A stretch of DNA of 64,000 bases from an uncultured bacterium (lineage in GTDB: Bacteria > Hydrothermota > UBA3073 > NMUJ01 > CBEVQO01): the NCBI GenBank assembly GCA_965552055.1, contig CBEVQO010000009.1, forward strand, positions 17,202-81,201. The letters are read 5' to 3'. This document shows positions 9,405 through 22,001 of this stretch, one piece after another (the stretch's first letter is position 1; each line of letters begins with the position of its first letter). Both the position numbers and the translations under genes were made by a program. The notes below the pieces were generated by a model, which saw only the letters and a program-made list of their open reading frames with translations, had not been told where the DNA came from and ran no database searches.

Positions 9405-10181
9405 ATGATGCTTGCATATTTAATTTTTGGGCTTTTTAGACCTTTTAATTTCAATGTAGAATATGAATTTTCTGAGACGAGCGCTGTAAAATTTGAGCCT
9501 GTGATTGAGGAGATGATAGTAAAAATGGATTTCGGTAGTATCAACCTTAGCACATGGGAAAAGGATTACATAGAGGGAGAAATAATCAAAGAAGCAGAAA
9601 AAGAAAAAGACTTGAAGAAAATAAAACTCGAGAAAGAAAAAATAGGAAGCAGGGTAAAAATAAAAGTAAAAGGCAAAGGCAGAATCAAAAATGCAAGGGT
9701 AAAGGTAAACCTGAAAATACCGGAAAAACTCAAAAAGATGGAAACATCTATAAATGCTGGAAATCTAAATCTCAATGGTGAAAAATTCACATGCGAGAAT
9801 ATGGATGTAAAAATAAACGCAGGAAGTTGTAATTTATCAATCAACAATCTTAAAATTGCAGAATTGGGAGTTAATATAAATGCAGGAAATATGGAAATTG
9901 AGGGTGAAAAATTCTCATTCAACAATATGAACATCGAAATAAATGCAGGAAGCGGTGAATTGCATACAAAAGAAATATCCGGTAAAAATATGGAAATAGA
10001 AGTAAATGCAGGCAATATGGAAATTTATCTACCAGAAGATGAAAATATCGGAATAATTGAGAAAGAAGGCGTGAGCAGGGTCTCATCAGATTTGCCAATA
10101 TACACAAAAGATGTAGATAAACCTTTCAAAATAAAATTAGAAGTAAATGCAGGAAAAATAGAAATCCATAAGATTGAATGA
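9405..10181 (+). CDS. DUF4097-like beta-strand repeat exported protein
   Basis: N-terminal hydrophobic stretch; repeated (I/V)NAG(N/S) units with internal duplication. Confidence 0.7.
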
Positions 10182-10887
10182 AAGAAATTAAAAGATTCTT
10201 AAAATTCTTAAAACCTTACTGGAAAAAAGGATTATTAGCTTTTTTCTTAATGCTTATATCCGTATTACTGCAATTGCCAATGCCCTTTCTTACCCGCTAT
10301 ATCATAGATAAAGTAATTTTACTTAAATCTTTCAAAATTTTAAACATTATAGGTTTTGTTTTAATAGGAGTTATTTTTCTACAATCTTTCTCTTCATTTC
10401 TGGAAAATTATTTATTAACCACTTTTAGAGCAAGGGTGCTTTTTGATGTCCGTTATAAACTATATGAGCATGTTCAATTGCTTCCTCTCAAATTCTTCCA
10501 TGATAAAGGCACAGGATATCTTATGGCAAGAATATCTGGGGATGTTGACACACTACAGGGCTTACTTGCAGATACTTTCATAGCATCAGTAAGAAATTTG
10601 CTCATATTCAGTGGTAGCATTAAAGAAAATATACGCTTTGGTAAGCCATCTGCAACTGATGAAGAAATTGTTGAAAGTGCTAAAAAATCACACGCTCATG
10701 ATTTTATCATAAAATTACCAAAAGGTTATGACACCGAAATTGGTGAAAGAGGCGTAAAATTATCAGGAGGTGAGCGTCAGATAAAATAATCGTAATAGAA
10801 GGAGGTGAAATCGTCGACATCGGGAAGCATATAGAATTATTAAAAAGATGCAGTGTTTATAAAAACCTTTACTTAAATTATTTTTAG
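10178..10887 (+). pseudogene. ABC exporter (TMD+NBD) eroded by two internal deletions
   Basis: TMD start fused directly to [20 protein letters not shown]; no Walker A/B; C-terminal [21 protein letters not shown] continues in another frame and ends at the TAG (10885-10887) of element B. Confidence 0.85.
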
Positions 10888-11170
10888 CCCCGCCTCCGCT
10901 GTCCCCACCTTCCCATGTGCACACCCCTCCTTTCAGTCGGGGTGTGACAAACTACCCTTATGTAATAAACTCGCTTCGCTCGTATTAAAAAATTTAATAC
11001 AAAAATTAAAAATTTTAATATTAATGTTAAAAAATTTAATAAAAAATTTAAAAATTTTAATAAAGTCGTTAAAAATTTTAACTACATGTACACCCCTTGC
11101 AAGGCACAAGTACTGCCTCGACAACACCTTAGCTCTATAAACGCCCTTCCCGCCTCGCATTAAAAATTTT
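10885..11170 (+). repeat. dispersed element copy B (complete short copy + 21-bp array + second partial copy)
   Basis: Left end at 10885; CACACCCC/GGGGTGTG hairpin; right end CTCGCTTCGCTCGTATTAAAA; second module 11085-11170 matches the interior and right end of copies D/E. Confidence 0.9.
10984..11088 (+). repeat. 5 x 21-bp AT-rich tandem repeat, each with near-palindrome TTAAAA-A-(T/A)TTTAA
   Basis: Units start at 10984, 11005, 11026, 11047, 11068 (exact 21-bp period). Confidence 0.85.
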
Positions 11171-11173
11171 CTC

Positions 11174-11202
11174 TTGACATTTTTCATTATTGATTATATA
11201 AT
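11174..11202 (+). promoter_or_regulatory. consensus sigma70-type promoter TTGACA-N17-TATAAT for integrase and possibly cassettes
   Basis: TTGACA 11174-11179, TATAAT 11197-11202. Confidence 0.8.
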
Positions 11203-11227
11203 TATGATGCAAACTCTAGGGTATAAA

Positions 11228-12217
11228 ATGGCAAAAGAAGGAAAAACTCCTTTTGTGAAAATTGATCCGGGAAGAAATAATAAGATTATAATCAGAATTC
11301 CATACAATCAGGATTTGATAAATAAGGTAAAATCTATACCCAGAAGGGAGTGGAACCCACAGGGGAAATATTGGGAAGTTCCTTACAGTGAAGATTTAAT
11401 AACAAAATTAAAGTCTCTTTTTGGAGAAAATCTTGTCGTTGATCCTTACTTTTATCTTATCCCACTCCAGAAGGAACTTTCCATAAGAAAATATTCAAGG
11501 AGGACAATCAAGTCATACATAAGAATTAACAGAGATTTTCTTTTATTCTCTGGAAAGAGACCAGAGGAGATAGAAAATAAAGATGTTAAGGAATATCTTT
11601 ATTATGCGGTAAATCAGAAGAAAGTTGCTGCATCTACTTTGAATGTTATTATAAATGCTTTGAGATTTTATTACGGAGAGATCTTGAAGAAGAGATTCGC
11701 TTACGAGATAAAGAGACCGAAGAAGGACAAGAAGCTTCCTATTGTTCTGAGCCAGGAGGAGGTTTCAAGGATTCTATCTTCCGTTACAAATCTTAAGCAC
11801 AGGCTGATTTTGATGCTCATGTATTCTGCCGGCTTGAGAGTTGGAGAGGTTGTAAAGCTTAAAATCGAAGACATCGATGTGAAGAGAAGGTTGATCAGAG
11901 TAAGGGGTGGAAAGGGAAGGAAGGATCGCTATACGATACTCTCTGAAGTTGCGCTGAAAACTTTTAAAGAATACGCTGAGATCTTTGAGCGAGCAAGGAA
12001 TAAAGCTGGAATAAAGAAGGATGCTACAGTTCACTCTTTGCGCCATTCATTTGCTACTCATTTGCTCGAAAATGGAGTGGATTTGAGATGTATTCAGGAA
12101 TTACTGGGACATAAACATTCTAAAACGACAGAGATTTATACTCACGTGAGCACTAAGAATTTGAGTAAGATTAGAAGTCCGCTGGACATGCTGGGAGGTG
12201 AGAAGCATTCAGAATGA
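11228..12217 (+). CDS. integron-associated tyrosine recombinase with N-terminal extra domain; apparent in-frame deletion in catalytic domain
   Basis: SAM_4-like RKYSRRTIKSY, KKLPIVLS, GLRVGE, GKGRKDR, HSLRHSFATHLL, LGH, IYTHV; lies upstream of attI and attC array; the WLFP-containing segment usually found between KEY and IFERA is missing. Confidence 0.85.
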   Translation: MAKEGKTPFVKIDPGRNNKIIIRIPYNQDLINKVKSIPRREWNPQGKYWEVPYSEDLITKLKSLFGENLVVDPYFYLIPLQKELSIRKYSRRTIKSYIRINRDFLLFSGKRPEEIENKDVKEYLYYAVNQKKVAASTLNVIINALRFYYGEILKKRFAYEIKRPKKDKKLPIVLSQEEVSRILSSVTNLKHRLILMLMYSAGLRVGEVVKLKIEDIDVKRRLIRVRGGKGRKDRYTILSEVALKTFKEYAEIFERARNKAGIKKDATVHSLRHSFATHLLENGVDLRCIQELLGHKHSKTTEIYTHVSTKNLSKIRSPLDMLGGEKHSE

Positions 12218-12220
12218 GTG

Positions 12221-12287
12221 TATACGCAATGCAGATATGACTCTAATTTGGAATGATATACGCAATGCGTATATGAACGAGTTAGGC
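12221..12287 (+). mobile_element. putative attI site
   Basis: Two copies of TATACGCAATGCnnATATGA (12221, 12257; the second is palindromic ATATACGCA-A-TGCGTATAT) followed by core GTTAGGC at 12281, complementary to GCCTAAC ending cassette 1. Confidence 0.75.
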
Positions 12288-12322
12288 GACATATCCCGCA
12301 AACCGTATAAGGAGGTGTGAAA

Positions 12323-13393
12323 ATGAACGAAGAATATGTACAAGAGATAGATGAATTGATAAATATGGTTCCTAAAGATATTGTTAATTTTGCTTTAAAA
12401 AGGAAAAGAGGAAATGTTCCTACACAAGCATTTTCTGAATTTCTTACAAATAGAGAACAAGGTGACTGGGCAGAAGATTTAATTTTTAGAGCCATAAATG
12501 AAATTGAAAACGGAATTGTTGCCGTGAGATATGGAAAATCCGACCAAATTGTAGCAGGAGAGCCAGGATTTAAAGAATTCTATGAAAAATATCAAGATGA
12601 ACTGGACACTATAGGTAAGCGACCTGATTTGCTTATTTTTAGAAAAAATGATTTTAAATTTTCCACCTTTGATATTAGCCACTTTGACGACAATGAATTA
12701 AAACAGGTTGTACCGAAAGCAATTGCTGGATTAGAAATAAGATCGAGTTCATTTCTCGTTCACAAATACACGGAATTTTCTATAAAAAGAAGAGAGGATA
12801 TAATAAATCAAATAGATGAAATAGTAAACAACCTTAAAACTCAATCCTCTGTTCTACCCAGTAGTTGGAAGATATGGCTATCAAATGTTAATCCAGAAAA
12901 TGAGGCAACACTATTTTCGATACCGAGAGCAAGTGTAAAATTAGAATCATTAAAGAGCGCAATCCAGCAACTTCGAGCATTGATTAATTCTTTAAAAAAG
13001 AGAGATTTTCTCAGTTTTACTCCAAAAGCTGAAGATATTTATGTAATCTACAAGTGGATCAAAACTTTTGGTGTTCCCCATTATTATGTGCAAGTATTTT
13101 TCGATCAAGTTTACGCGATCCCTTTTAAGAAGATTTTAGAAATCATATCTGATTCATCTAATGAAGGTAAAATATTCTTCGTTGAAAAGAATACAAAAAA
13201 TCAATTCAAAACGACAATACATATAGATATAAATCAAGGAGTATTATTGGCTGAAAAAATAGATTTTCCTGATCACAGAAGTGAATATAAAGAGCTTGGA
13301 AGGGGAAGATTACTATTTTACGTTACCTTCAGAGGAGGGAAGGCATACTTGGATGTTAATAGATTCTATAAAATGATAGGTCTTCAACACTAA
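12323..13393 (+). CDS. AccI-family Type II restriction endonuclease (cassette 1)
   Basis: PTQAFSEFLTNREQGDWAE, GKRPDLL, GLEIRSS, GRLLFYVTF recalled as AccI-family features; adjacent MTase. Confidence 0.8.
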   Translation: MNEEYVQEIDELINMVPKDIVNFALKRKRGNVPTQAFSEFLTNREQGDWAEDLIFRAINEIENGIVAVRYGKSDQIVAGEPGFKEFYEKYQDELDTIGKRPDLLIFRKNDFKFSTFDISHFDDNELKQVVPKAIAGLEIRSSSFLVHKYTEFSIKRREDIINQIDEIVNNLKTQSSVLPSSWKIWLSNVNPENEATLFSIPRASVKLESLKSAIQQLRALINSLKKRDFLSFTPKAEDIYVIYKWIKTFGVPHYYVQVFFDQVYAIPFKKILEIISDSSNEGKIFFVEKNTKNQFKTTIHIDINQGVLLAEKIDFPDHRSEYKELGRGRLLFYVTFRGGKAYLDVNRFYKMIGLQH

Positions 13394-15027
13394 TGAAGGT
13401 GGTTAAAATGAAAGTGCATGATAAAATATTTAGCGAATTACCTGAAAAAGAATATCTCAAGAGTACTCCTTACGAGCATAGAAGAAAATTAGGGCAATTT
13501 TTTACGCCTATGTTTATAGCAGATTTAATGACTGAATGGATAGTGAATAATGAAAGTGGTACAGAAATATTAGATCCTGCATTAGGTTTAGGAATATTTT
13601 TCAGATCAATTATGAAGAATCACTTTGATAAAATCAAGAAGTTTAATTTTATAGGATACGAAATAGATAAAAACATGGTAAAACTTTCAAAGGATTTATT
13701 TTCAAATATTCCAGAAATAAATGTTCAAATACATAATAGAGACTATCTAACCGAGGACTGGGAAAGAAAATATGATGGTATTGTATGCAACCCTCCCTAC
13801 TTAAAATTCCATGATTACGAACCAAAGGATGTCCTTCTCGATATGTTCAAAGCGAGATTAGGAATGAAACTATCGGGATTTACTAATATTTATACGCTGT
13901 TTATTCTTAAATCAATTTGGCAATTAAGAAATGGAGGAAGGGCAGCCTATATTGTCCCATCTGAATTTTTAAATTCGGATTACGGTAAAAATGTAAAAAA
14001 ATATATCAAAAAGAGTGAGACTCTTAGATTTGTGATAATAATTGACTTTAATCTTGGTGTGTTCGAAGATGCTACAACGACTTCATCTATACTTTTATTC
14101 GCTAAAGATCAAAATAATAAGGAAGTAGAATTTATCAATATTAAGAGCTTAAGGGAATTAGAATTAATCAAGAACTACATTCTATCCTATCCGCTTACAA
14201 GGAAAAAGGGGAGAGTAGTTAAAATCAAGGAATTAGATGAAGCACAAAAATGGAGAATTTATTATCAAGAACTTAATGGAAGTAAGTACAAACATTTAGT
14301 TCCTTTTTCAAAATATGCGAAGGTATCAAGAGGTATAGCAACCGGTGCTAATAGTTATTTTATGTTTTCGGAAAGTAAGAGAGTTAAATATGGTATAAAA
14401 ATGAAATTTCTATTGCCCTGTTTAGCAAAAGCATCTTATGCTAGGAAACATTTTTTTACTAATGGCGATTTCGAGAAGTTAAGAAAAGCGGATAAACCAG
14501 TCTATTTGTTAAATGCTACAGATTTATCTGATGAGAATCTGAGAAAATATATAGAATTAGGAGAAAAACAAGGAATACACAAGCGTTATCTTACAAGTCA
14601 TAGAACTCCTTGGTACTCACTAGAAAATCGGCCACCGGCACCAATCCTTGTGACGGTATTTAATCGAACAGGACTAAGATTTGTACGGAATGAAGCAGGG
14701 GTTTATAACTTAACAGCATTTCATTGTGTATATTTAAAACCTAATATTATACCCAAGGTGGACTTACTGATGGCTTACTTAATTACTGATGTTGCAAGAG
14801 AAATCTTTGAAGATAGCAGACGAGAATATGGAGGAGGATTAAGAAAGTTTGAACCAAATGATCTAAATAATGCTTTTGTTGTTGATTTAGAAAAAATTAA
14901 CCCAGAACATGAAAAAGAGATTTTGAAGTTATTTTACGAATTCAGAGACAAAGAAATAAAAGGAGAAAATACAACTAATGTAAAAAATGAACTTAACGAA
15001 ATATTTTTAGAAATATTTAGGAGGTGA
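13393..15027 (+). CDS. N6-adenine DNA methyltransferase, cognate of AccI-like REase (cassette 1)
   Basis: GQFFTP, ILDPALGLG, NPPY, TRD region with RGIATGAN and REYGGGL. Confidence 0.9.
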   Translation: MKVVKMKVHDKIFSELPEKEYLKSTPYEHRRKLGQFFTPMFIADLMTEWIVNNESGTEILDPALGLGIFFRSIMKNHFDKIKKFNFIGYEIDKNMVKLSKDLFSNIPEINVQIHNRDYLTEDWERKYDGIVCNPPYLKFHDYEPKDVLLDMFKARLGMKLSGFTNIYTLFILKSIWQLRNGGRAAYIVPSEFLNSDYGKNVKKYIKKSETLRFVIIIDFNLGVFEDATTTSSILLFAKDQNNKEVEFINIKSLRELELIKNYILSYPLTRKKGRVVKIKELDEAQKWRIYYQELNGSKYKHLVPFSKYAKVSRGIATGANSYFMFSESKRVKYGIKMKFLLPCLAKASYARKHFFTNGDFEKLRKADKPVYLLNATDLSDENLRKYIELGEKQGIHKRYLTSHRTPWYSLENRPPAPILVTVFNRTGLRFVRNEAGVYNLTAFHCVYLKPNIIPKVDLLMAYLITDVAREIFEDSRREYGGGLRKFEPNDLNNAFVVDLEKINPEHEKEILKLFYEFRDKEIKGENTTNVKNELNEIFLEIFRR

Positions 15028-15078
15028 CGGTTTGCGGGATACGCTTCGCCACTATCGTGGCTCGCCCCTAACGGGGTC

Positions 15079-15169
15079 GCCTAACAAGCGGGTATCTGGC
15101 TTCGGCCTACGCCTTCGCCCAAATCCTTCGCTATCGCTCAGGACTTCAGATACCCGCCAAACGTTATAC
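15079..15169 (+). mobile_element. attC site 1
   Basis: GCCTAAC...GTTATAC cores; inverted arms GCGGGTATCTG / CAGATACCCGC. Confidence 0.9.
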
Positions 15170-15200
15170 GCCATGCTCATGGATGAGGAGGTTGAACTAA

Positions 15201-16412
15201 ATGAATGAAAAATCTGAAAAGGAAATCCTCGAAGAATTTATAGTAAATAATCCAGAACTCGAAAAATTGGAAGAAATTATTAATACATTTAATATATTTG
15301 ATGCTTTAAATATGGTAAATTATGAAATAAGACATTCTATTTTTCTTTCTTGGTTGATGAATCCTCAAGAAAGCCATGGATTAAAGGATTATTTTTTAAA
15401 ATCCTTTCTAAAAACAATAGCTTTAAAAGCTTCTACACTTGGTATAAAAGAAGTCTCAGTATTTGATATAGATTATTGGGATTTTAATGATGCAGAAATA
15501 TTAAGAGAATGGAGAAATATTGACATCCTGATAAGATGCGATGAGCAGAAATTTATTTGCGCCATAGAAAATAAAATATATTCCAAAGAACATAGCGATC
15601 AATTACAAAAATATAAAAAAGTAATCAAAAACGAATACCCGGAATATAAAAAATTGTTTGTCTACTTGACAGTAGAAGGGGATATTCCGTCTGACAATGA
15701 ATACATACCTTTAAGTTATAGTGAAATAGTCCCAATAATAGAACGTCTCATAGAAAGTAAAAAAGACAAATTAGGTTCAGAAATATTATCCTTCATTTCA
15801 CACTATAAAGATATGTTAAGGAGGTATATCATGAAGGATTCCGAAATCCAAGAATTGTGTAGAAGAATCTACCAAAGGCATAAAAAAGCATTAGATCTCA
15901 TTTTTGAGTATAAGCCGGACAAGTTATCGGAAATATACGACTGTCTAGTTGAAATAATAAAAAAGGATAGCGACTTAATCCTAGATGATTCAAGCAAATC
16001 ATATATAAGGTTTATTCCAAAGAGTTTAGATTTTATTCCTAAACAAGGAGAAGGATGGACTAAATCAAAGAGAATACTGCTATTCGAATTTCAAAATACT
16101 ACTGACGGATTGTCTTTATATCTTATTATTGGTCCTGGTTCGGGAGATATCAGAAAAATCCTTTATAATAAAGCTAAAGAAAACACAGGTATTTTTAACA
16201 AATCCAACCGTAAGCTAACCCCGCAGTGGTTTACTATTTACAAGAAATCCGTATTAAAACCCAAAGACTACGAAGATAAAGATATAGAAGAAATCAAAAC
16301 GATTCTCGAAAAGAAATTCGAAAAGATTAAAAATACAGATTTACGCGAAATTGTAAAGAAAATTAAAGAAATTGAAAAAGAAGTTAAGAAATTTAATGAG
16401 CACAGCGTATAA
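15201..16412 (+). CDS. PD-(D/E)XK nuclease family protein (PDDEXK_4-like; cassette 2)
   Basis: EIRHSIFLSWLMNPQESHG, REWRNIDIL, IENKIYSKEHSDQLQKY. Confidence 0.85.
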   Translation: MNEKSEKEILEEFIVNNPELEKLEEIINTFNIFDALNMVNYEIRHSIFLSWLMNPQESHGLKDYFLKSFLKTIALKASTLGIKEVSVFDIDYWDFNDAEILREWRNIDILIRCDEQKFICAIENKIYSKEHSDQLQKYKKVIKNEYPEYKKLFVYLTVEGDIPSDNEYIPLSYSEIVPIIERLIESKKDKLGSEILSFISHYKDMLRRYIMKDSEIQELCRRIYQRHKKALDLIFEYKPDKLSEIYDCLVEIIKKDSDLILDDSSKSYIRFIPKSLDFIPKQGEGWTKSKRILLFEFQNTTDGLSLYLIIGPGSGDIRKILYNKAKENTGIFNKSNRKLTPQWFTIYKKSVLKPKDYEDKDIEEIKTILEKKFEKIKNTDLREIVKKIKEIEKEVKKFNEHSV

Positions 16413-16494
16413 CAGCGGACATACGGCTGCGGTGCTTCGCCCCTTCGCCCAAATTTCCCTTCGGGAAACTTCGTATGTCCGCAGAACGTTGTCC
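16407..16494 (+). mobile_element. attC site 2
   Basis: GTATAAC...GTTGTCC cores; arms GCGGACATACG / CGTATGTCCGC. Confidence 0.9.
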
Positions 16495-16532
16495 GAAATT
16501 CGGCTCGGCGGCTGTAAAATGGAGGTGAATAT

Positions 16533-17522
16533 ATGGCAACAGAAATAAAAGTATGGCAAATTATTGACGGTAAATTGGAGCTTATTGAAACAACAATGAT
16601 TGAAGCGGGACGGAAAGAAACAGAAGACCTTGAGAAATGGATTAAAAGTAACCCCTTAATCCTTGGAGAAGATATATTAATTATAGGAGAACAAGTGCTC
16701 ACAAAATCTGGTTCAATAGATTTTCTTGGAATAGATAAATTAGGTAATCTTGTTGTAGTTGAATTAAAAAGAGATAAACTCCCAAGAGATGTCTTATCTC
16801 AAGCGATAGATTATGCTTCAGATGTGGCTTCGTGGGATGTGGATAAGATCAGCGAGGTTTGTACTAAATATACGGGGCGGAGTTTGGAAGATTACCTAAG
16901 CGAGAAATTTGAGGATGTTGATTTGGAAGATTTGACAATCAATAAAACTCAAAGAATTTTGCTTGTTGGTTTTTCAATCGAGGAATCATTACAAAGAATG
17001 ATTGAATGGCTCTCAAATAATTATGGTGTTAGTATCAATGCTGTTATTTTGAAGTATATAAAAACAAAAGGTAATGAAGAACTTATTGCTCGAACGGTAA
17101 TTATTCCTGAGGAGATAGAAAAGGAAAGAACCAGAAAACGGCAAATACAATTTCCAATGTCCGATGAACCTGGGAGTTACAGTGAGGATGAGCTTAGAAA
17201 GAAGTTGATTGATTATTTGTCTGAAAACAGAGATACCCCTCGTCGTATTAGGGAAATATTACTTCCTTTATGTTTAAAACATAAACTTGTGACGAGGGAA
17301 ATGATTAAAGAAGAGTTGATTAAAAAAGGAGAAGCTGATGACGAGGGTAAAGCAGGAAGAATTTTAACCACGATCTCAAAAGAAATTGGATATGCGCCAA
17401 GAGATTATCTTCGTCAGATTATACAATATGATAAACCCAACCCTTGGGAAAAGGAAAATTATAGATTAATAGAAGATTACAAAGATTTGGTACGAAGTGT
17501 ATTGGAGAATCTGAACAAATAG
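16533..17522 (+). CDS. NucS/DUF91-like PD-(D/E)XK endonuclease (cassette 3)
   Basis: LEKWIKSNP..IIGEQV..IDFLGID..VVELKR..QAIDYAS. Confidence 0.8.
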   Translation: MATEIKVWQIIDGKLELIETTMIEAGRKETEDLEKWIKSNPLILGEDILIIGEQVLTKSGSIDFLGIDKLGNLVVVELKRDKLPRDVLSQAIDYASDVASWDVDKISEVCTKYTGRSLEDYLSEKFEDVDLEDLTINKTQRILLVGFSIEESLQRMIEWLSNNYGVSINAVILKYIKTKGNEELIARTVIIPEEIEKERTRKRQIQFPMSDEPGSYSEDELRKKLIDYLSENRDTPRRIREILLPLCLKHKLVTREMIKEELIKKGEADDEGKAGRILTTISKEIGYAPRDYLRQIIQYDKPNPWEKENYRLIEDYKDLVRSVLENLNK

Positions 17523-17586
17523 GAAGGTGAAAAAATAGTATGCCGCCGAGCCGAACTCTCCGCTTCGCTTCGGTGCTGTCGCACTC

Positions 17587-17680
17587 GGACAACAGGTGGA
17601 TATGTGGCTTCGCCTTCGGTTACGCCCAAATTTGCTTTGCTAATGCTCCGCAAACTTCACATATCCCCAGAACGTTAGGC
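17587..17680 (+). mobile_element. attC site 3
   Basis: GGACAAC...GTTAGGC cores; arms GGATATGTG / CACATATCC. Confidence 0.88.
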
Positions 17681-17737
17681 GTAATCGGGCAGTGCGGCTT
17701 GGAAGAAAAAACAATAAAAAATTGAGGAGGGATTATT

Positions 17738-18259
17738 ATGATTATGAAAGAAGAAAAACTCTACAAAGAAGGGTTTGAAAATTATCCTATTGGTTGCGTT
17801 ATCAGGCAAAATATCTTTTTTCTTGCTTATTTTGGGATAGGGCTTATTGGAATGCTACCGCTCCAAATCCTCGGATTTCCAATAATTTCGGCGTTGTATG
17901 CTCTATTCCTTATCCTAATGCTTCTCTTTGTCTTAAGAAAACATCTCTGCACGCATTGCTATTACTACGGAAAGCTATGCAGCACAGGTTGGGGCAAGCT
18001 ATCTGCTCTTATGTTCAAGAAAAAATCTGGAAATTATCAACTGGGAGTGAAACTTGCTGGTATAACATGGATATTGGCAACAACAATACCCATTGTGGGA
18101 ATTATCCTGGCACTCTTTCTTGACTACTCTTCCTCAAATCTAATCTTCCTTATTCTGTTTATTCTTTTGTCTCCGGTTAATTTCATAAGCCATAAAAAAG
18201 CCTGTGAAAAATGTAAAATGAGATTTATCTGCCCGGCAAGTATGACAAAGGGTGATTAA
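17738..18259 (+). CDS. 4-TM membrane protein with Cys clusters (cassette 4)
   Basis: Four hydrophobic helices; CTHCYYYGKLC and CEKCKMRFICP; RBS GAGGAGG. Confidence 0.75.
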   Translation: MIMKEEKLYKEGFENYPIGCVIRQNIFFLAYFGIGLIGMLPLQILGFPIISALYALFLILMLLFVLRKHLCTHCYYYGKLCSTGWGKLSALMFKKKSGNYQLGVKLAGITWILATTIPIVGIILALFLDYSSSNLIFLILFILLSPVNFISHKKACEKCKMRFICPASMTKGD

Positions 18260-18260
18260 A

Positions 18261-18792
18261 ATGGAGATAAGGGAATTCAAAATTGAAGATTGGCAAAAAG
18301 TGAGATTTCTGGAAATCATTAAATTTCTTAACTCCATTTGATAGGAAATGGATATATGAAAGAAAAATCAGAGAATATCCAGATCTATTCTTGATTGCGG
18401 AAGATAATGGAAAAGTTGTTAGAACATGTATAGCAAACTACGATGTTCAGTTGAGCTACATTCGTTTTTTGATTAAGGAAGGTTACGAGTCTGTAGGAAT
18501 TGAATTGTTAAAAGAAATGGAGAAGAGACTGAGAAAGAGAGGAACTTTAGCAATGTTCATTGTGCCTCGCAAAGGAAAACCATGTGAGAGGTCTTTAAAG
18601 GCAATAAAACTTGAAGGATTAAACAAATATGCAAACTGCGAATTCTGGGTGAAATTTTTAAATAAGAAGGAGGATTTTCCACCATTAGTAATAGGTGCAG
18701 ATGCTACATTAGCTAAAAACCTTCGCCTAACAGCGCGTTTGCGGTTCGCTCCGCTCGTAATAAAAATTTTTATTGACATCCTCACATTTTGA
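18261..18792 (+). pseudogene. GNAT acetyltransferase-like remnant (cassette 4)
   Basis: MEIREFKIEDWQKV start, then frameshifts; LFLIAEDNGKVV and GIELLKEMEKRL GNAT-like segments; reads through the attC4 remnant. Confidence 0.6.
18725..18772 (+). mobile_element. truncated attC4 fused to right-end motif of dispersed element
   Basis: GCCTAAC (complementary to cassette start GTTAGGC at 17674) followed, instead of a right arm, by GTTCGCTCCGCTCGTAATAAAAATTTTTA. Confidence 0.7.
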
Positions 18793-18806
18793 ATAAATAA
18801 AGTGAT

Positions 18807-20729
18807 ATGTTAACCTTCGTATTAGCACTTGGCATACCTTATGGCGGGATTAAAAATCTATCGTTAATCGATACAAACTTCATCCAGCTTGTCCCCAGAT
18901 ACAAAGAAAAATCAACGAGAAAAATCGAAGCATACGCAAGTTACGATGAAAAATTCCTTTACATAAAGGTAAAACCCTTCTATACCGAAAATGAGCGCTT
19001 CGCCAAAACAATAGCAAGAGACGGAAACTTCGAAGGTGAAGATGCAATCTTCATAATAATCGACCCACTATGCTCGGGAAAATATTACTGGTTCGGAGTA
19101 AATTTACTTTGTACAAAACAGGATGGCAACGGAATAGAAGGAGGAGGAAGCTCAAAAGAATGGGACGCTATTTGGGATTGTGAAGTAAAACAACATAAAG
19201 ATTACTGGTACGCAATATTTAAAATACCATGGAAAGCAATAAATTTTAACTTTGAAAATAATAAGATAAGATTGAATATAGTTGTGCAAAATTACAGCAA
19301 CCATGAAACAGATTATCTTTTCGATACAGGTGCAGATATCTATAAGCCTTCGCTTTTCGGAGAATTCGAACTACTAGATTTTTCAAAAGTTAAATCAAAA
19401 TTAAAAAGCAAATCAATATTTACATTTTTACCTTATTTCTCCGGATACAAAGAAGGATACAAATACGGGATTGACACAAAAATAAGAAAAGGCAAAAATT
19501 CGCTTTGCATAGCTTATAACCTCGATTATGTGGAAGTCGAACCTGACATTGCTCAAATTTCACTATCTCCTTATGCCCAGGAATATTATCCAGAGAAAAG
19601 AAAATTCTTCACAGAAGGACTCTACCTCATACCAATGAGTGTATTTTATACAAGGAAAATAAAAACAGTGAAACTCGGAATAAAAGCTTATGGCTCAATA
19701 CAAAATTTCAGATATAACATTATGGGGGTATCAGAGCTCGAAGATACCAATAATTTCTTTGTCGGTATAGTTTCCAGCAAGAAAGGAAATCTATATCAAT
19801 CTTTCGGAATAGTTAATAAAGATTTTGATAATTATTGTTTTGTCTTCACCCAAATAAATTATAATTTCAGCAAAGAATACTATTATTCTTTGAATTTCTC
19901 TTCCAATTTAATAATTGAAGATACAGCAATTTCTCTAATAAAAGGTTCAAAGATTTTACAGTTCTTCGGTTATAAAAAGCCAACATACTGGGGGAACTTT
20001 TGTTTATTTTATGATGGTAAAATGTCAATGCCGAGATATGCATTTGGATATATAATTGATTATAAATCTTACGGTGCTTCCTGGTTCAACTGGTTTAATG
20101 TTTACCCTGATATATTAAAAGAAATAAATGGATACTGGAATCTTTACTTTTCTATTGTTGAAGATACACTCCGCTCATTTTCTTTTTCAACTCGTCCAAC
20201 TTTTGTAATATCCGATTATCTTTGCACTTACTTTGGTGCTGTTTACTCTAAAGATGAATTTTGGGAATGGGAGGAAATTTCATCATGGTTTGGCTTATCG
20301 ATGGGCAAAGAGTATGGTGCAAGTATGAGCATCAAAATAGGCAAAGCAGGTGAAACTAGTAAAAAATTAGAGCAATTGTATTCTTATAACGGAAAAGTAT
20401 TTGCAAATTTAAAAAGGATGAGATATAATCTGGGATTCGAAAAATCTATGTCAACATATCTTGCAAAACCTTTTATCTGCTTATACACCAGTGCGAAAAT
20501 AAATCTTACAAACTGGATTAGATTGAGATTATTCGGGGAATATTATGAGAAACAATATAAGTGGCAGGAAGAGCTACAAAAAATTTTATCACTAAATATG
20601 CTAATCGGGATAGAAAAATTACCATTTAAATTTTATCTGGTACTTAATGGAGATTATGATTTTGCTACAAAAGAATGGGAAAAAGAATTTTATCTTAAAT
20701 TAAAATATTTATTTGAACTGGAAAAATGA
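18807..20729 (+). CDS. carbohydrate-binding family 9-like / DUF5916-type outer membrane protein
   Basis: YDEKFLY, DAIFIIIDP..YYWFGVN, WDAIW..FKIPW, YPEKRKFFTEG, FYTRKI; aromatic beta-rich C-terminus. Confidence 0.75.
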   Translation: MLTFVLALGIPYGGIKNLSLIDTNFIQLVPRYKEKSTRKIEAYASYDEKFLYIKVKPFYTENERFAKTIARDGNFEGEDAIFIIIDPLCSGKYYWFGVNLLCTKQDGNGIEGGGSSKEWDAIWDCEVKQHKDYWYAIFKIPWKAINFNFENNKIRLNIVVQNYSNHETDYLFDTGADIYKPSLFGEFELLDFSKVKSKLKSKSIFTFLPYFSGYKEGYKYGIDTKIRKGKNSLCIAYNLDYVEVEPDIAQISLSPYAQEYYPEKRKFFTEGLYLIPMSVFYTRKIKTVKLGIKAYGSIQNFRYNIMGVSELEDTNNFFVGIVSSKKGNLYQSFGIVNKDFDNYCFVFTQINYNFSKEYYYSLNFSSNLIIEDTAISLIKGSKILQFFGYKKPTYWGNFCLFYDGKMSMPRYAFGYIIDYKSYGASWFNWFNVYPDILKEINGYWNLYFSIVEDTLRSFSFSTRPTFVISDYLCTYFGAVYSKDEFWEWEEISSWFGLSMGKEYGASMSIKIGKAGETSKKLEQLYSYNGKVFANLKRMRYNLGFEKSMSTYLAKPFICLYTSAKINLTNWIRLRLFGEYYEKQYKWQEELQKILSLNMLIGIEKLPFKFYLVLNGDYDFATKEWEKEFYLKLKYLFELEK

Positions 20730-21418
20730 TTGCGATTTTGTTTTTTATTTGCAAAATATTTGCACCGGCATACACAGAGACACTGATTTTTGATACCAGA
20801 GAAATAGAGGAAGTAAAATTAGTAATCAATGGGGTATTAAAAATAAAAACCTATGAAGATGATTTTATTAAAGGTGAAATCCAAGTATTCACATTTGGAG
20901 AAAAACCAGCAAAACCCAAAATTATCCAAAGGAAAAAAGGCAAAAAGCTGATAATAAAAATGGATATAGAAAGAGTTAAAAATCAATCGCTTCACGCAAA
21001 TCTCACTATACCGAAATCTTTAAAAACAATAGATATACAGATGGAAGGAGTAATAGAAATCGATAGCGGACAAGAATCTCAAGCCAATTTGTTCTGCAAC
21101 ATTAAAAAAGGAGGAGTTGTATCAGTGAATGGGATGGCATTTAAAAGAATGAAAATCAAAATGGATGAAGGAATACTAACTTTCACATCAAAAAGTATTA
21201 GAAAAAATTTTAAATTCGATGCAAAATTAAATTTTGGATATGTTAAGATAGATCTACCTGATGATAAAGAAGTTGCGATTTTCTTAAAAGGAGAGCCAGG
21301 TCGAATTCATAGCGATTTCCCTATACACAGTTTCGAAGAGATAGGAAAGATAAAGAAAAGATGCAAAATTCTACTCGAAATAAAATCGGGCATCGTAACT
21401 TGCTATCGCTCGCATTGA
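20726..21418 (+). CDS. DUF4097-like exported protein
   Basis: Signal peptide; similar layout to 9405..10181 (IKGEI, IPKSLK, IHSDFPI); stop lies within a right-end motif. Confidence 0.6.
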   Translation: MIAILFFICKIFAPAYTETLIFDTREIEEVKLVINGVLKIKTYEDDFIKGEIQVFTFGEKPAKPKIIQRKKGKKLIIKMDIERVKNQSLHANLTIPKSLKTIDIQMEGVIEIDSGQESQANLFCNIKKGGVVSVNGMAFKRMKIKMDEGILTFTSKSIRKNFKFDAKLNFGYVKIDLPDDKEVAIFLKGEPGRIHSDFPIHSFEEIGKIKKRCKILLEIKSGIVTCYRSH

Positions 21419-21430
21419 AAATTTTTAATA
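21401..21430 (+). repeat. isolated right-end motif of dispersed element
   Basis: GCTATCGCTCGCATTGAAAATTTTTAATA. Confidence 0.65.
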
Positions 21431-21435
21431 CAAAA

Positions 21436-21818
21436 TTATTTTAATAAGTTCAAAATTGCAGTAATTAAAGTGCCAACTATTCCTGATATTGCACCTATCA
21501 ATAGCCACATTAATTTGTCAATCCTTCTGTTTGTTTCATCTATCCTCTTGTTAGTTTCCGCTGTCTTTTCATCTATCCTCTTGTTAGTTTCTGCTATCTT
21601 TTCATCTATCCTCATGTTTAATTCACTTATCGCTTTCTGGAACTCTTCTTTAGTCACAAATTTATCCAGTTTCTCTTCTATTCTTATCACTCTACCTGCT
21701 GTACTTAACTCAAATTTCCTGAACATATCCTCTTCCATCATTGCCTCGGTTGGAATTTTTTCACTGCTTTCCTTACCGCTTCTTCCAGTTTCTCTTTCTC
21801 AATTTTTGCTTCAGCCAT
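21436..21818 (-). pseudogene. coiled-coil protein with C-terminal TM anchor, frameshifted at an A6 run
   Basis: ATG 21818 with RBS AAGGAGG; one extra base at 21756-21761 would join it to ORF 21436..21741; 33-bp IDEKxAETNKR repeats. Confidence 0.6.
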
Positions 21819-21892
21819 CTTCCCCTCCTTTATAAATATTAATCATGCTTACAATTTGTCAATAAATTTTATAAATTTTTTACAATCTTTAT

Positions 21893-21957
21893 CCGCTCCC
21901 TTACTCATTTCACCTTACCCATGTGTAATAAACTCCACTTGCATTAAAATTTTAATT
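21893..21957 (+). repeat. degenerate copy of dispersed element
   Basis: CCGCTCCC..CACCTTACCCATGTGTAATAAACTC..TTGCATTAAAATTTTAAT resembles copies A/B. Confidence 0.55.
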
Positions 21958-21982
21958 GACGAACTAATATTTTCAATATAAT
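21956..21982 (+). promoter_or_regulatory. promoter TTGACG-N15-TATAAT
   Basis: Direct read, upstream of RBS AAGGAGG and S41 peptidase. Confidence 0.7.
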
Positions 21983-22001
21983 ACCTCAAAAAGGAGGAAT
22001 A

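Follow-up and report, generated by a model that had tools for sequence, protein, structure and literature searches.

Introduction

The I2 insertion and single-strand recombination are described as confined to integron integrases (IntI), and a causal role of I2 is regarded as unproven: its deletion kills IntI1, and intermediates are lacking (Escudero 2020, PMC7790495). Among tyrosine recombinases, an "integron-like subgroup" has been delineated with incomplete conservation of the insertion (Smyshlyaev 2021, PMC8138268), and attI downstream of intI has been reported in archaea (Ghaly 2022). Here, we analyse a locus between positions 11174 and 18770 of a 64,000-nucleotide stretch of contig CBEVQO010000009.1 (hereafter, the window) from an uncultured bacterium of the Hydrothermota. 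It comprises a gene for an integron-like tyrosine recombinase, an attI-like site and a series of gene cassettes with hairpin sites of their own geometry. We consider it quite probable that the locus represents a second type of integron, its cassette array likely assembled by a relative of IntI that lacks I2 and is predicted to act on a folded hairpin site.

A literature search, with supplements and most subscription journals outside its scope, retrieved no paper that describes arrays of I2-less recombinases or sites built in this way. It also drew on Qi 2023, Nivina 2016, a preprint on Vibrio defence cassettes (10.1101/2024.07.02.601686), a Treponema paper (PMC3607928) and PMC11523902.

Cassette organization and linkage to the recombinase

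An initial annotation of the locus had described an integrase transcribed toward the array, with attI after its stop codon and three complete sites and one truncated site beyond, and the coordinates bear this out. The elements of the array, all on the + strand, are as follows.

11228..12217, +: I2-less integron-like tyrosine recombinase, 329 aa from ATG; catalytic residues kept, 25-aa internal deletion
11243..11452, +: N-terminal HARP-like domain, about residues 6-75; profile and predicted-fold resemblance
12220..12287, +: attI-like site; two inverted 7-bp box pairs, 6 nt, then the G|TTAGGC core
12282..15163, +: cassette 1, 2882 bp; AccI-family restriction endonuclease (12317-13393) and type II methyltransferase (13393-15027)
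15079..15169, +: hairpin site 1, 91 nt; stem register +3
15164..16488, +: cassette 2, 1325 bp; PD-(D/E)XK nuclease (15201-16412), PADLOC PDC-S26-like
16407..16494, +: hairpin site 2, 88 nt; stem register +4
16489..17674, +: cassette 3, 1186 bp; NucS-like nuclease (16533-17522), PADLOC PDC-S11-like
17587..17680, +: hairpin site 3, 94 nt; stem register +3
17675..18753, +: cassette 4, decayed; 173-aa hydrophobic open reading frame (ORF; 17738-18259) and frameshifted ORF from 18261
18725..18753, +: truncated hairpin site 4; R'' box and beginning of the 5' arm only

The attI-like site begins 3 nt past the integrase stop, with its crossover at G12281|TT in an insertion point of the form G|TTRRRY, and the cassette boundaries lie at G|TT. 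Each of the four window cassettes closes with an R'' heptamer that is perfectly complementary, in reverse, to the heptamer with which that cassette opens; R'' mismatches the R' of the neighbouring array unit in the three sites where this could be tested. A match to the own start without a match to the neighbour is the trace left by circular units inserted at G|TT. The same chaining is exact in 144 of 188 consecutive site pairs from 54 family loci, as against 14 pairs when the neighbouring R' is taken as the partner and 12.4 on average in shuffles (maximum 25); in the non-viral family loci, it holds for 41 of 44 pairs.

Sites and attI are also tied to the recombinase gene across its homologs. 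Of 26 close loci, the window included, 19 have the attI motif no more than 330 nt past the stop, where 0.011 occurrences are expected per 330 nt, and the attI core complements the R'' of the first site in 11 of 14 loci. Among the close loci with 1.5 kb or more of downstream sequence, 18 of 22 have a co-oriented site, as detected with a family site model built from 10 family sites; 5 of these loci had supplied training sites. The initial annotation depended on homologs being associated with such arrays, and they do head cassette arrays, with up to 19 sites per locus. In the archaeal locus L010 (Ca. Alkanophaga), the attI is near-identical to that of the window and the first cassette is different.

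Orientation varies in the I2-less family, the viral and some other members being divergent from their arrays. The viral clade (L139-L209, from IMG/VR contigs; for example L145, L147, L149 and L179) consists of I2-less recombinases of about 270 aa without the N-terminal domain. Divergent arrays are present in 29 of 32 of its loci, many of them close kin; they are dense, made up of short cassettes that chain exactly, and their hairpins follow the same design. At another locus (L215, G080:C95), an I2-less recombinase has same-orientation sites on both sides, as if it lay inside an array. On an Acinetobacter plasmid (NZ_CP041297.1; L226:5028-7200), tet(X3) stands behind a truncated family recombinase and an attI-like G|TT, with a truncated sequence resembling a hairpin site after it; the arrangement resembles a captured cassette, and its R boxes are not exact matches.

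Geometry of the hairpin sites

The initial annotation had called the sites attC. Hairpin sites are indeed present, and their geometry, a point it overlooked, is not the canonical one. Canonical sites near IntI consist of R'', 5 nt and an 8-nt bulged L'', and later L', 6 nt and R'. In the family sites, R'' is followed by 5-6 nt and an unbulged stem, and 8-9 nt precede R', so that additional R'-side bases between the R and L boxes displace the stem by 3-4 nt. Site 3 of the window can be drawn with a single bulged T near the base of its stem.

After removal of duplicates (50 loci dropped, 286 kept), gap-free stems in register +2 to +4 account for 83 of 100 downstream matches at domain-bearing I2-less loci and for 3 of 34 near IntI. 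The domain-bearing I2-less loci have 4 upstream matches in 265 kb, and sites in register +3/+4 occur in none of 22 IntI loci, on either side. A canonical covariance model, made for this analysis from 21 sites with a rough alignment and different from the model of IntegronFinder, recovered 17 untrained sites at IntI loci and no site in the window or in six family loci; reciprocally, the family site model found no site in 9 IntI loci. The family hairpin geometry is found with the I2-less recombinases, not with IntI. The initial annotation had expected such arrays to be reported as clusters of attC sites lacking integron integrases (CALINs); the blank result of the canonical model suggests instead that they may be missed altogether.

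Several features concern the folded form of the sites. Stem covariation is seen in 7 of 12 pairs, the bottom strand is computed to fold more stably in 291 of 322 sites, and A follows AAC and C precedes GTT in 306 of 322. The bottom strands of the three complete sites of the window, in their circular-cassette form, give −23.8, −21.5 and −17.2 kcal/mol, with z-scores of −5.6, −4.2 and −3.2 (200 shuffles each). These data bear on the alternative that the sites are recombined as double-stranded DNA in the manner of Xer or phage integrases, the palindrome merely supplying binding boxes. The catalytic domain is colinear with that of archaeal XerA and attI holds several inverted box pairs, as this alternative would have it, but the spacers of attI and the hairpin sites differ in length (6 versus 9 nt) and in sequence, which argues against ordinary double-strand exchange. 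Nor does it fit that R'' matches the cassette's own start despite lying 80-130 nt from the crossover, or that compensatory stem changes accompany a bottom-strand folding bias, and we regard it as unlikely.

Absence of I2 and phylogenetic placement

No I2 insertion had been visible in the initial annotation. For the window copy this observation does not stand, because a 25-residue deletion removes the very region in which I2 would be read. I2 was therefore tested on intact homologs, for which the claim holds: judged from their alignments, they lack the insertion. The intact homolog P0002 has 21 residues where VchIntIA (PDB 2A3V) has 63, leaving a gap, and aligns colinearly with archaeal XerA (4A8E) with no large gap. 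The distance between the conserved R and H is 54-66 in 206 of 222 family loci, compared to 94-101 in IntI; this set includes duplicates and a few Xer-like loci, 15 loci were not measurable and one is the deleted window copy.

A phylogeny was computed with IQ-TREE on 67 rows picked from 134, with no Treponema or archaeal IntI knowingly included. The IntI rows (16) form a 100/100 clade that excludes the window protein, and the wider 134-row analysis agrees; the Xer rows (14) form a separate 100/100 clade, with the window protein outside XerC/D. Placement inside IntI or inside Xer was rejected on these grounds. The 36 rows of the I2-less family group together at 89/70, with a 32-row core including the window protein at 98/98, and family and IntI join at 99/86. 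On this sequence evidence, the family is a lineage beside IntI and distinct from Xer, and the intact homologs neither carry I2 nor fall inside the IntI clade, as the initial annotation had supposed. One I2-less row, L089, falls outside both family and IntI, so that the I2-less recombinases may be a grade ancestral to IntI. The window integrase scores 223.9 bits with TIGR02249, below the cut-off of 265.

Canonical IntI was found neither in the 97%-complete host genome, which has two other Xer-like genes, nor in 181 sampled genomes of the host phylum; in a control phylum, the same IntI family search gave scores above its cut-off for 72 of 201 genomes. P0002 has matches in 23 of 151 host-phylum genomes, a few of them Xer-like. 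Several close homologs (P0004, P0014, P0021 and others) carry an HTH_17 (excisionase-like) domain ahead of the HARP-like domain.

The recombinase of the window

Two further features, both on the + strand, concern the expression and integrity of the integrase gene.

11174..11202, +: sigma-70-type promoter; perfect, 12/12 consensus match
11980..11981, +: junction of the 75-nt in-frame deletion; patch III and start of the next helix gone

The R-K-H-R-H-Y catalytic set is intact in the window copy (R204, K229, H269, R272, H295 and Y304). The 25 residues lost are present in 22 of 22 aligned homologs and correspond exactly to the patch III/I2 region, and C stands at position 288 in place of a near-invariant Y. 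From its sequence, the deletion probably inactivates the enzyme; it was read from the assembled sequence, with assembly error a possible source. Sequencing runs contained no more than 0.47 of the sequence words compared and carry no information on habitat or on the deletion. The full-length predicted structure of the deleted copy is weak at the C-terminus, with predicted local distance difference test (pLDDT) values below 50 at residues 266-310, and no structural inference was taken from it. The array of the window, mostly of defence-type genes, thus likely stands frozen, its integrase activity lost by the deletion. No terminator-like site was found on the + strand within 10800-12400, and the integrase promoter likely reads through attI, in which case it would serve as the cassette promoter, including for the first cassette.

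The N-terminal HARP-like domain

The extra N-terminal domain reported in the initial annotation is present, and it appears HARP-like by profile and by fold. Pfam HARP (PF07443) matches the window copy with an E-value of 4.8e-5 and 23.3 bits, against a 25-bit cut-off, and the homolog P0014 with 27.4 bits. A profile of 61 copies of the domain has SMARCAL1 HARP (4o66) as its best match (E 7.2e-5). The domain model has a pLDDT of 87.7, and its top structural match is the N-terminal domain of T4 UvsW (Z 6.8, root-mean-square deviation 2.0, 59 aligned residues); a Z of 6.8 lies in the range that common folds reach, and eIF1-like folds follow one Z unit below. Foldseek returned nothing at E<=0.001 for this model (E 0.018).

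The initial annotation further proposed that this domain replaces I2, which would make it necessary for hairpin recognition. The HARP-like fold is described as junction-binding (PMC4666394), and among cellular I2-less loci downstream sites in register +3/+4 occur in 20 of 24 with the domain versus 5 of 37 without, as a replacement would predict. However, the same domain is found on 2 of 45 I2-bearing IntI loci (E 2.9e-28 and 2.3e-20), among them L307 with its bulged sites of canonical type, and it is absent from the viral enzymes, whose arrays are nearly always present, and from L052, L082, L212 and L215, which have register +4 sites. Its presence does not track the loss of I2, and the proposal is improbable. 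The domain likely helps to bind forked or hairpin DNA, as an accessory.

The I2-bearing examples are L249 (54-1361) and L256/L307, canonical IntIs with full I2 and the HARP-like domain; in L307 the integrase is co-oriented with its sites. Many other IntIs of the phylum of L249 and L307 have a duplicated SAM-like domain.

Cargo, flanking regions and host genome

The host is a diderm bacterium (SPOR and LptF/G genes) with a genome of 2.23 Mb. Neither ORF of cassette 4 matches a Pfam or NCBIfam family; the frameshifted one from 18261 may be acetyltransferase-like. Rfam gave zero matches across positions 10000-22000 of the window. One more feature adjoins the array:

18754..18770, +: repeat motif copy; 37 genome copies, adjoins the break of site 4

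The same motif flanks both ends of the element (window 11154-11170, 18754-18770 and 21409-21425). Site 4 breaks off exactly at the copy at 18754-18770; conceivably, the motif may derive from the loops of hairpin sites. Additional short GC-rich hairpins lie between cargo stop codons and R'' boxes (15027-15079 and 17540-17587) and share words with the site loops. Just upstream of the element, an ABC-transporter gene (10178-10789) looks internally deleted and truncated, which suggests local decay. Elsewhere in the genome, one further complete family site was found and no other (G000:C7:32577-32664; L224:6578-6665); it is flanked by two remnants, one coiled-coil ATPase-like, the other short and ahead of lptF/G.

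Proposed mechanism and its weighing

By its sequence, the system would function as an integron, with recombination predicted, yet it belongs neither with IntI nor with canonical attC. In the mechanism that we propose, the bottom strand of a circular cassette would fold into a mimic of attI, with the L box, 5-6 nt and the R box on one continuous arm. The enzyme would cut at the AAC of R', where the cleaved arm would present 3-4 extra unpaired bases. These bases by the cut, and not extrahelical bases bound through I2, would set the choice of strand, and they would permit exchange without spacer homology. One strand would be exchanged with double-stranded attI just behind the integrase gene, and replication would then resolve the junction, as in integrons.

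IntI1 has been reported to recombine sites from which the extrahelical bases were removed (PMC2727003, PMC5027507), and strand choice can then still be imposed by the unpaired central spacer (Bouvier 2009, PMC2727003). The spacer result supports the hairpin model, and it also implies that IntI might act on such sites. That the cassettes are ordinary ones assembled by a canonical IntI, with the adjacent recombinase a bystander or a decayed IntI, would suit the AAC/GTT triplets and G|TT crossover common to both kinds of site, the tolerance of IntI1 (PMC2727003) and the damage to the window recombinase, but it is very unlikely in view of the IntI-free host genome and 181 relatives, intact homologs without I2 throughout, a different site geometry with two site models that do not cross-detect, and an attI conserved right behind the recombinase gene.

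Several points weigh against an array built by an I2-less recombinase on folded sites. Support for the family as a single clade (89/70) is only moderate. The canonical control is small, at 34 matches, and some canonical sites (L310, L298) also have a longer R'-side spacer, their bulges kept. Beside their low downstream count, domain-less cellular I2-less loci have upstream +3/+4 sites in 3 of 22, and this scarcity suggests that many family members may not run arrays. The loci are best matches and related, so that the counts are not independent. Finally, since IntI1 tolerates stripped sites, the cassettes could in principle be moved by an IntI elsewhere.

A broader claim, which we advance tentatively and at slightly less than even chances, is that the I2-less family forms a further class of integrons, widespread yet undescribed, which recombines folded single-strand sites of its own design, runs arrays in bacteria, archaea and viruses from lineages regarded as almost integron-free, and preserves a pre-I2 state ancestral to IntI. 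If this is true, single-strand recombination predates I2. A natural I2-less sister family with hairpin sites of its own makes the question of I2 causality directly testable. The integron census would change as well: very few integrons are reported in Bacteroidetes (Neron 2022, PMC9024848), compared to I2-less family matches in 68 of 201 genomes of the phylum of Draconibacterium. The I2-less arrays would also hold a reservoir of still unexploited defence genes, and mobile resistance genes could originate from them.

Comparison with known systems

Canonical integrons (IntI1; VchIntIA, PDB 2A3V) are the closest relatives. With them the locus shares a recombinase of sister lineage, attI beside the gene, promoterless co-oriented cassettes, the AAC/GTT triplets and G|TT crossover, R''/R' chaining, the 5-nt R''-L'' spacing, the bottom-strand bias computed here and defence-type cargo. 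It differs in the lack of I2, in the absence of an extrahelical base in the L stem, which is replaced by the 3-4 extra R'-side bases, and in an integrase that stays under the TIGR02249 cut-off. The family is also unlike the integrons of Treponema, whose IntIs carry the additional domain, and those of archaea, whose IntIs are described as carrying it (Ghaly 2022).

Members without the insertion are represented in the integron-like subgroup (PMC8138268) and in NCBIfam NF040815. The account of that subgroup calls the insertion essential to integron function and, its appendix aside, describes no arrays or sites for the insertion-less members (Smyshlyaev 2021, PMC8138268). XerC, XerD and XerA share with the family a compact catalytic domain without insertion, colinear in the case of XerA (4A8E); unlike the family, which is tied to cassette arrays, they form a clade of their own. 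SMARCAL1 HARP and T4 UvsW resemble the N-terminal domain in sequence profile and predicted fold, whereas here the domain is fused to a recombinase and the likeness is expressed by modest structural scores. The initial annotation had treated co-orientation of integrase and array as a novelty, which it is not, as it is known from the inverted (reverse) integrons of Treponema (Cury 2016, PMC4889954).

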